Below, piece by piece: positions 31,474 to 34,303 of a stretch of 64,000 bases of DNA. The notes below the pieces were generated by a model. The model ran no database searches, was not told the DNA's origin, and saw only the letters and a list, made by a program, of their open reading frames with translations. The translations under genes were made by a program, and so were the position numbers. The stretch is taken from the NCBI RefSeq assembly GCF_003334785.1, contig NZ_QOWV01000009.1. One strand, given 5' to 3'. The DNA is from Escherichia coli. Its GTDB lineage: Bacteria; Pseudomonadota; Gammaproteobacteria; Enterobacterales; Enterobacteriaceae. Within the stretch, counting starts at the first letter, position 1. Each line of letters starts with the position of its first letter.

Positions 31474-32445
31474 TTACGGCAGAATTGACGGCTGATCCGC
31501 CCCTTCTTTTTCCACTTTCTGCTGCAACATGTGTTCGCGCTTCATACCCAGTTTCAGAGCCAACGCAGATGCCACATAGATGGAAGATGCAGTACCGATG
31601 GAAACACCGATAAGCATGGTCAGCGAGAAGCCTTCCAGTACCGGACCACCGAAGAGGTACAGCATCAGGATAACCATCAAGGTAGTACCGGATGTGATCA
31701 AGGTACGGTGCAGCGTCTGGGTCAAGGACACGTTAAAGATTTCGTAAGGCGTACCGCGACGGATCTTGCGGAAGTTTTCACGAATACGGTCCGATACCAC
31801 GATACTGTCGTTAAGCGAGTAACCGATAACCGACATCAACGATGCCACAATGGTCAGGTCAATCTCGATATGGAATAACGACAAAATACCCAGCGTAATG
31901 ATAACGTCGTGCGCCAGCGCAATAACCACCCCTGCCGCCAGTCGCCACTCAAAGCGGAAACCTACGTACACGAGGATAGACAGCAGCGCTGCCATCAACG
32001 CCATCGCACCGGTTTGCGCAAGGTCTGCCCCCACGCTCGGACCGACGAACTCAATACGCTTCACTGCTGCATTCTGATTGGTGGATTCGTTAATCACCTT
32101 CAGAACCTGGCTGCCCAACACCTGACCGCCGGTTTCGCCTTCAGCAGGCGGCATACGGACCATGATGTCATGGCTGCTACCAAAGTTTTGCAGCATCGGC
32201 TCTTCAAAACCGGCTTTTTGCAATGCATCACGCATTACGTCAATTTCAGCCGGTTTTTCGAGCGTAATTTCAATAACCGTACCACCGGTGAAATCCAGCC
32301 CCCAGTTAAAGCCGCGCACGCCCATAATAACGATAGCAGCGATTAACAGCAGACCAGAGATGCCGAAAGCCCAGTAGTCCCAGCGCATAAAGTCATAGAC
32401 TTTACGGCCGTGGTTTAGTTGTTCAACAGTATATTCCTGTGCCAC
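31474..32445 (-). CDS. secF: Protein translocase subunit SecF (323 aa)
   Basis: ORF track 31474..32490; start placed at the in-frame GTG at 32445 giving (M)[27 protein letters not shown]..., 10 nt after the secD stop. Confidence 0.92.
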
Positions 32446-32455
32446 ATCGCACTCC

Positions 32456-34303
32456 TCAGATTGACAGCTTCTTGACGCGCTTGCCGCCATATAGCAGGTT
32501 TACGATGGCACGCGTACCGACAATCGCGGTAAACATCGACGTCGCCACACCGATACCGGTAGTAATCGCGAACCCTTTAATTGCCCCGGTACCCACTGCG
32601 TACAGGATGATGACTTTAATCAGCGTGGTGATGTTCGCATCGAAGATAGAACTGAATGCGCCACGATAACCTTCATCAATTGCCTGTTGAACAGTACGTC
32701 CGTTGCTCAACTCTTCTTTAATACGTTCGTTGATCAGTACGTTCGCATCGACCGCCACCGCAAGGGTTAAGACGATACCCGCGATACCTGGCATACTCAG
32801 CGTTGCGCCTGGCAACAGCGACATAATGCCGACGATTAAGATCAAGTTGGCAATCAGAGCACTGGTCGCAATCAGACCAAACTTCTTATAGAAGATGATC
32901 ATGAACAGAATAGAAACCAGCAGACCGGCAAGGCAAGCCTCCAGCCCCTGTTCAATGTTCTGCATACCCAGGGTTGGGCCAATGGTACGTTCTTCAACAA
33001 TCTGAATCGGCGCGATCAACGCACCGGCACGCAGCAGCAGTGACAGCTGACGGGCTTCGTTCGGGTTGTTGATGCCGGTGATACGGAAGCTGTTACCCAG
33101 ACGAGACTGGATGTTGGCGATGTTAATCACCTCTTCCTGTTTCACCAGAACCGCACGACCATTTGCATCTTTCTTACCGCTGTCTTTGTACTCCACAAAC
33201 AGGGTTGCCATCGGTTTGCCGATGTTGTCCTTAGTGAAGTTAGACATGATGTTACCACCAGCGCTATCGAGCGAGATGTTAACCTGCGGTTGGTTGTATT
33301 CGTCCTGGCTGGAAGTGGAGTCGGTGATATGGTCACCGGTCAGAATTACGCGTTTGTACAGCACAACTGGCTGACCTTCGCGGGTCTGTTTCACTTCAGA
33401 GTCGCCCGGTACGCGACCGGATGCCGCAGCGGCCTGGTCAACGTTGGTGTTTACCAGACGGAATTCCAGCGTTGCCGTCGCACCCAGAATCTCTTTCGCA
33501 CGCGCAGTGTCCTGAATACCTGGCAGTTCAACAACGATACGGTCAGCACCCTGACGCTGAACCACCGGCTCCGCCACGCCAAGTTGGTTTACACGGTTAC
33601 GCAGGATATTAATGTTCTGCTGCACCGCATATTCACGCGCTTCACTCAGACGAGCATCGCTCATTACCGCACGCAGCTGGTTGCTGCCCTGGCTGCTAAT
33701 CACCAGGTCCGGATGGCGCTTGCTCAGATACGCAATGGCTTCATCACGAGCTTTAGCATCGCGGAAAGTGATGCTCAGGCCGTAGTTGTTTTCTTTACGA
33801 ACAGTGGTATACGGGATGCCCTTTTCGCGCAGGTCACTGCGTAGGCTATCGATATTTTGTTCCTGGAGTTTGCCAAGCGCGGTGTCCATATCCACTTCCA
33901 TCAGGAAGTGAACGCCGCCACGCAGGTCAAGGCCGAGCTTCATCGGCTCAGCGTGAATAGCTGCCAGCCAGCGCGGCGTTGCCGGGGCAAGGTTAAGCGC
34001 CACGACGTATTTGTCACCCATAACGCCCATTAATGCTTCACGAGCGCGCAACTGGGTGTCAGTGGAGTCGAAGCGCGCAAGAATAGCGCCCTCTTCCAGT
34101 GCCACAGACTTAGCAGTTATTTTTTCTTCTTGTAACGTTTTCTGGACCTGGATCAGCGTTTGCTCACTGGCGGCGACTCCGCGCGCACCAGTGATCTGAA
34201 CAGCCGGATCCTCACCAAACAGGTTGGGAAGCGCATACAGCAGACCGATGACAATCACCACGATCAGCATGACGTACTTCCACAAAGGATAACGGTTTAA
34301 CAC
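32456..34303 (-). CDS. secD: Protein translocase subunit SecD (615 aa)
   Basis: ORF track 615 aa [39 protein letters not shown]... Confidence 0.96.

Follow-up and report, generated by a model that had tools for sequence, protein, structure and literature searches.

The closest described counterpart of the locus analysed here is secF of Escherichia coli K-12 (b0409, UniProt P0AG93, RefSeq WP_000046637.1), which follows secD in the yajC-secD-secF operon. In the RefSeq/PGAP annotation of the K-12 MG1655 record, secF is 972 nt long and is separated from secD by a 10-nt gap, which corresponds to a GTG start. Kohl et al. (2022, NAR 51:271, PMC9841429) noted the start as AUGUG and list secF among the 'atGTG' start sites in their Table 2, with an AGGAG Shine-Dalgarno (SD) sequence and aligned spacings of 11 and 13. 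They tested the site with a luciferase reporter in which 20 nt of the native ribosome-binding site (RBS), together with 15 coding nucleotides, were fused to luciferase; the ATG at position -45 lies outside this construct. Efficient secF initiation was observed only at the annotated GUG, and the overlapping, out-of-frame AUG was 'hardly detectable' (their Figure 5B). The explanation offered is that the aligned SD spacing of the AUG is too short (11, compared with 13 at the GUG). secF initiates only at GUG and in this differs from the ambiguous sites of the atGTG group (pqiA, which is cited, and tamA, which is predicted, in the same paper).

The N-terminus of the protein has also been reported. 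In the TRAINSPOTTER N-terminomics study (NAR 2026, PMC13245402), rows 85-86 of Table S1 give two secF (b0409) peptides covering residues 1-14 and 2-14. The same table places the initiation site at NC_000913:429505-429507, a GTG in the category dbTIS. The evidence columns for secF read 'Ribo-RET (BL21), INRI' (INRI-seq) and, for elongation Ribo-seq, 'REPARATION'. In these rows the protein begins with Met, or with residue 2, at the secF GTG codon. A Met-first peptide at a position where the DNA reads GTG requires initiation at that codon, since read-through from upstream would give ...CDVAQEY with Val in its place. As both the 1-14 and the 2-14 forms are tabulated, the initiator Met of SecF is partly removed. 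The part of Table S1 covered here has no row for an extended or alternative start of secF, which is a weak negative for a low-abundance membrane protein such as SecF. The GTG starts of hupB and ribD are backed by peptides in the same table. A whole-text literature search with the 2-14 peptide gave no match, and the peptide turned up solely in the supplementary table; the text covered from the TetRP supplements of PMC4909307 has no secF entry.

More distant relatives show another gene arrangement. SecD and SecF form a single fused chain in Thermus thermophilus (PDB 3AQP) and Deinococcus (PDB 5XAN). These proteins share the SecF domain, and residues 17-300 of E. coli SecF align to the C-terminal half of the fused chain. 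The fused proteins use a peptide linker, whereas E. coli has separate cistrons with a stop codon, 10 nt and a GTG restart.

We analysed a window of 64,000 nt, an E. coli chromosome segment that runs from hupB to yaiW. Both secD and secF lie on its minus strand. The secD CDS (615 aa) occupies 32456..34303, with a GTG start at 34303..34301 and a TGA stop at 32458..32456; the evidence comes from the ORF list, RefSeq, a check of the start codon and the NCBIfam model TIGR01129, which SecD matches with 503 bits (cutoff 244). On the minus strand, the 3' end of secD reads AAG CTG TCA ATC TGA. It is followed by the 10-nt spacer GGAGTGCGAT (32455..32446) and by the GTG start codon of secF (32443..32445, minus strand). 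This codon is supported by RefSeq, conservation, the N-terminal peptides and the reporter assay. The codons that follow are GCA CAG GAA TAT ACT GTT GAA CAA (AQEYTVEQ). The secF CDS of 972 nt (31474..32445, minus strand) encodes 323 aa plus a TAA stop, with a product that begins MAQEYTVEQ, as judged from the translation, from TIGR00966 and from PDB 5MG3 chain F, to which the SecF of the window is identical over all 323 residues. Both genes, secF and secD, match the K-12 MG1655 record with 100% identity; the GTG, the 10-nt gap and the 323-aa length are the same, and there is no difference between K-12 and the window at the secF locus. The original prediction was that secF is GTG-initiated 10 nt after the secD stop. 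Its coordinates and geometry are right, and to these we add the strand, which had been left unstated. A mechanical ORF list also contains a 76-aa GTG ORF that runs antisense across the junction of secD and secF on the plus strand (32439..32669); we found no support for a gene there.

The junction is nearly invariant within the species. Of 5426 complete E. coli genomes, 5425 gave a match to a 1201-nt (about 1.2-kb) junction query, the matched feature being annotated as secD/secF, and 5418 of these 5425 carry an identical 61-nt junction. Some individual records deserve mention. One of the 5426 genomes gave no match to the secDF query, and in another the locus lies on a record typed as plasmid. 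In NZ_CP061758.1 (E. coli O68:H12 strain 97.3), the query aligned in two pieces over 1775 nt and there are two secF annotations, which points to a secF gene carrying an insertion or a duplication. Elsewhere in the window, one extra 31-nt unit relative to K-12 MG1655 is found in a REP-like repeat cluster between araJ and mak (about 50,840..50,900), and scattered SNPs relative to the MG1655 record occur in tig, ampG, phoB, araJ and aroL. The window thus derives from an E. coli strain other than MG1655.

The initiation signals single out the GTG. A Shine-Dalgarno sequence, GAGGAG (32452..32457, minus strand), covers the final two bases of the secD stop and ends 6 nt (TGCGAT) before the GTG. It is evident from the sequence and from its pairing with the 16S rRNA 3' end, which gives a duplex of -8.7 kcal/mol. 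When 20-nt windows were scored in this way across secDF, only 3.7% reached -7 kcal/mol or lower. The 20 nt before the in-frame ATG at 32490 gave +0.6 kcal/mol and those before the ATG of Met20 gave -0.4 kcal/mol, so there is no SD at either. The GTG of secF therefore has an SD at working distance, and the competing in-frame ATGs have none.

A pattern scan of the minus strand at the secD/secF junction detected nothing resembling a promoter and no convincing terminator-like site. The same scan found an intrinsic terminator-like hairpin with a 13-bp stem and a T run (31425..31454, minus strand), 20 nt past the secF stop and before yajD; this hairpin closes the yajC-secD-secF transcription unit. 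With neither kind of site at the junction and a terminator past secF, secD and secF form one transcription unit. Thus secF lies directly downstream of secD within a single unit, and the same gene order is found in contigs of Yersinia and Dickeya.

The start is conserved well beyond E. coli. Our species set comprised 80 species-representative genomes, with SecF 87-99% identical, plus the Yersinia and Dickeya contigs, giving 82 Enterobacterales. The start codon of secF is GTG in 82/82 species (80/80 loci plus Yersinia and Dickeya), and the GGAG of its SD and the 10-nt length of the secD-secF spacer are likewise invariant in all 82. One locus (L061) gave a spacer value of -31, an artefact caused by its short flank of 168 nt; at the junction its sequence matches the others. 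Of the 80 species, 78 end secD with TGA and two with TAA.

The protein family gives an independent view of the N-terminus. SecF scores 313.4 bits against the NCBIfam equivalog TIGR00966 (cutoff 160), with profile positions 1-278 of 279 falling on residues 17-298, and its close homologues carry Pfam PF02355 and PF07549. For more distant comparison, a library clustered at 50% identity supplied 79 stand-alone SecF representatives for an alignment. Of these, 97% have residues in the columns that correspond to E. coli residues 16-19, Phe19 is conserved in 71 of the 80 aligned sequences, and the conserved motif x-(D/N)-F-(M/L) begins before Met20. The length of the N-terminus was compared as the number of residues before the conserved Phe19 column (77 homologues). 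The homologues have a median of 11 residues there; the GTG model has 18.

The use of GTG is not peculiar to secF within the window. We mapped 62 RefSeq CDSs onto it: 53 start with ATG, eight with GTG and one with TTG. According to RefSeq, the GTG starts are those of hupB (499), nusB (26813), ribD (28495), secF (32445), secD (34303), phoR (44061), mak (51837) and phoA (60234), of which nusB, ribD, secF, secD and phoR are on the minus strand. The TTG start (60980, minus strand, RefSeq) is that of a gene for a hypothetical 67-aa protein, located between iraP and ddlA. The K-12 genome paper reportedly gives GTG as the start of about 14% of E. coli genes. Compared with this figure, the share in the window (8/62, 13%) shows no enrichment and is ordinary. 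The original prediction had counted four GTG genes. It was right on hupB, phoA and mak in addition to secF (60234, 499 and 51837 being phoA, hupB and mak), but the total is eight, and secD itself had been missed.

Taken together, secF almost certainly starts at the GTG at 32445..32443, which is an ordinary and correctly annotated E. coli start; we found no contradicting evidence. The gene is well studied and this start is its textbook annotation; the experiments that decide the matter have been published. N-terminal proteomics and initiation profiling had been put forward as checks together with the prediction. Both are already in print, as a Met-first peptide at the GTG and as Ribo-RET and INRI-seq support flagged for the same codon in Table S1 of PMC13245402.

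Initiation at this site can be pictured as follows. The two genes are co-transcribed on the minus strand, and the GAGGAG over the UGA of secD sets the P-site of the 30S subunit on the GUG at 32445..32443. Initiator fMet-tRNA then decodes this GUG as Met to give the 323-aa SecF, from which the Met is removed in part. The out-of-frame AUG two bases upstream lies too near the SD to compete. Ribosomes that end secD would sit on the SD and start of secF and could re-initiate there; judging from the layout, this may couple the two cistrons and balance the SecDF subunits. A need for matched subunit amounts fits with the occurrence of SecDF as a fused single chain in many other bacteria. GTG is a weaker start codon than ATG. 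Both SecDF subunit genes use GTG, and the upstream yajC uses ATG; the weaker GUG on both secD and secF may help to keep expression modest.

How far the layout amounts to a coupling device is a separate question. The 10-nt gap between secD and secF and a GAGGAG that overlaps the UGA are features expected of coupled cistrons. We sought a structure that masks the secF RBS by folding the 101-nt junction and found none: the z-score is +1.05, and 170 of 200 shuffled sequences fold at least as well. The junction is no more structured than its shuffles, so the secF ribosome-binding site is open, and coupling via a masking hairpin at secD/secF is not supported. A literature search on translational coupling of secD and secF returned nothing relevant. 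The isolated secF RBS is active alone in the reporter (PMC9841429), so coupling is not needed for the choice of start. We consider it very unlikely that the secD stop, SD, 10-nt spacer and GUG, a layout frozen throughout the Enterobacterales, serve specifically for termination and reinitiation at a set SecD:SecF ratio, and that a minor product is made as well, either a 338-aa proteoform from the upstream ATG (Escherichia, Salmonella and Citrobacter) or a 10-aa peptide from the overlapping AUG. If true, such a reinitiation device and the minor products would be small refinements of known biology; neither has been seen so far.

A true dual start, in which the overlapping AUG yields a 10-aa peptide at a meaningful level besides SecF, is very unlikely. 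The motif itself is present at the secF start: the out-of-frame ATG belongs to ATGTG at 32447..32443 and opens a 10-codon ORF (32415..32447, minus strand). This AUG shares the strong SD of secF with a 4-nt spacer, and dual initiation does occur at some other AUGUG sites (Kohl et al., PMC9841429). Against this stands the reporter result for secF described above. In addition, the ATG is present in only 10 of the 82 species, most of which have TTGTG, and the 10-aa sequence is wholly dictated by the conserved N-terminus of SecF and so shows no selection of its own. By sequence and by the published reporter (PMC9841429), this ATG is a decoy that is barely used; secF carries the AUGUG motif without functioning as one of the ambiguous dual-start sites.

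A start at the upstream in-frame ATG (32488..32490, minus strand), which lies inside secD, has hardly any prospect of being correct. The product would have 338 aa, and the first 12 codons of its reading frame would lie over the 3' end of secD. The original prediction had pointed out that a longer ORF overlaps secD, and this is so: the ORF extends over 31474..32490, begins with ATG, encodes 338 aa and has 35 nt in common with secD. The prediction had added that the N-terminus aligns only if the GTG is used. This holds in that a protein beginning there needs the GTG, but not for the residues themselves, as the AQEYTVEQ codons also lie inside the longer ATG ORF. In favor of the upstream start, it opens the longest ORF, it is an ATG, and the codon is present in 31 of the 80 loci (Escherichia, Salmonella, Citrobacter and Kluyvera). 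It is, however, absent in 51 of the 82 species, including Yersinia and Dickeya, which have the same junction without it. In about half of the species, the secF GTG is the first canonical start after an in-frame stop at -57, so that a 338-aa form is impossible there. The position of the GTG is thus kept in the relatives, and the ATG alternative is not. The upstream ATG is further rejected because it has no SD (+0.6 kcal/mol, as above), and because it would place 33 residues before Phe19, a number reached by only two of the 77 homologues. No database entry among the top matches carries the extension, and the Met-first peptides in Table S1 of PMC13245402 map to the GTG, with no row for an extension of secF in the part of the table covered. 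The start at 32490 is effectively refuted as the main form of SecF.

The chance that secF starts at the downstream in-frame ATG (Met20; 32386..32388, minus strand) is practically nil: several clusters of 304-aa nr entries do begin there with MRWDYW (P0090 with 276 members, P0093, P0097 and P0119), but the codon has no SD, the conserved motif around it and a TIGR00966 profile that begins at residue 17 make Met20 an internal residue, and the tabulated peptides of PMC13245402 that cover residues 1-14 refute it.

The remaining database entries can be judged against the GTG start. Most SecF entries, and all current RefSeq records that we examined, are 322-323 aa long. The 304-aa nr entries are probably mis-called starts. 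We also considered database SecF proteins of 335, 348 and 407 aa as N-terminal extensions and rejected them, as all begin with MAQEYT and differ by internal indels or duplication. The metagenome entries in this range of 335-407 aa (P0001, P0002 and P0095) have the correct N-terminus together with internal duplications, indels or frameshifts, P0001 repeating its own last ~85 residues, and they look like assembly artefacts.

The prediction had also cautioned that GTG usage affects automated start calling in this region. The caution is fair, given that the mechanical ORF lister takes the upstream ATG and that some nr entries start from Met20. A naive longest-ORF or ATG-first caller would miscall secF as a protein of 338 or 304 aa, and the finding serves as a sanity check only. 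The 323-aa GTG form of SecF is agreed upon by current RefSeq, the PDB entry, N-terminal proteomics and the reporter assay.
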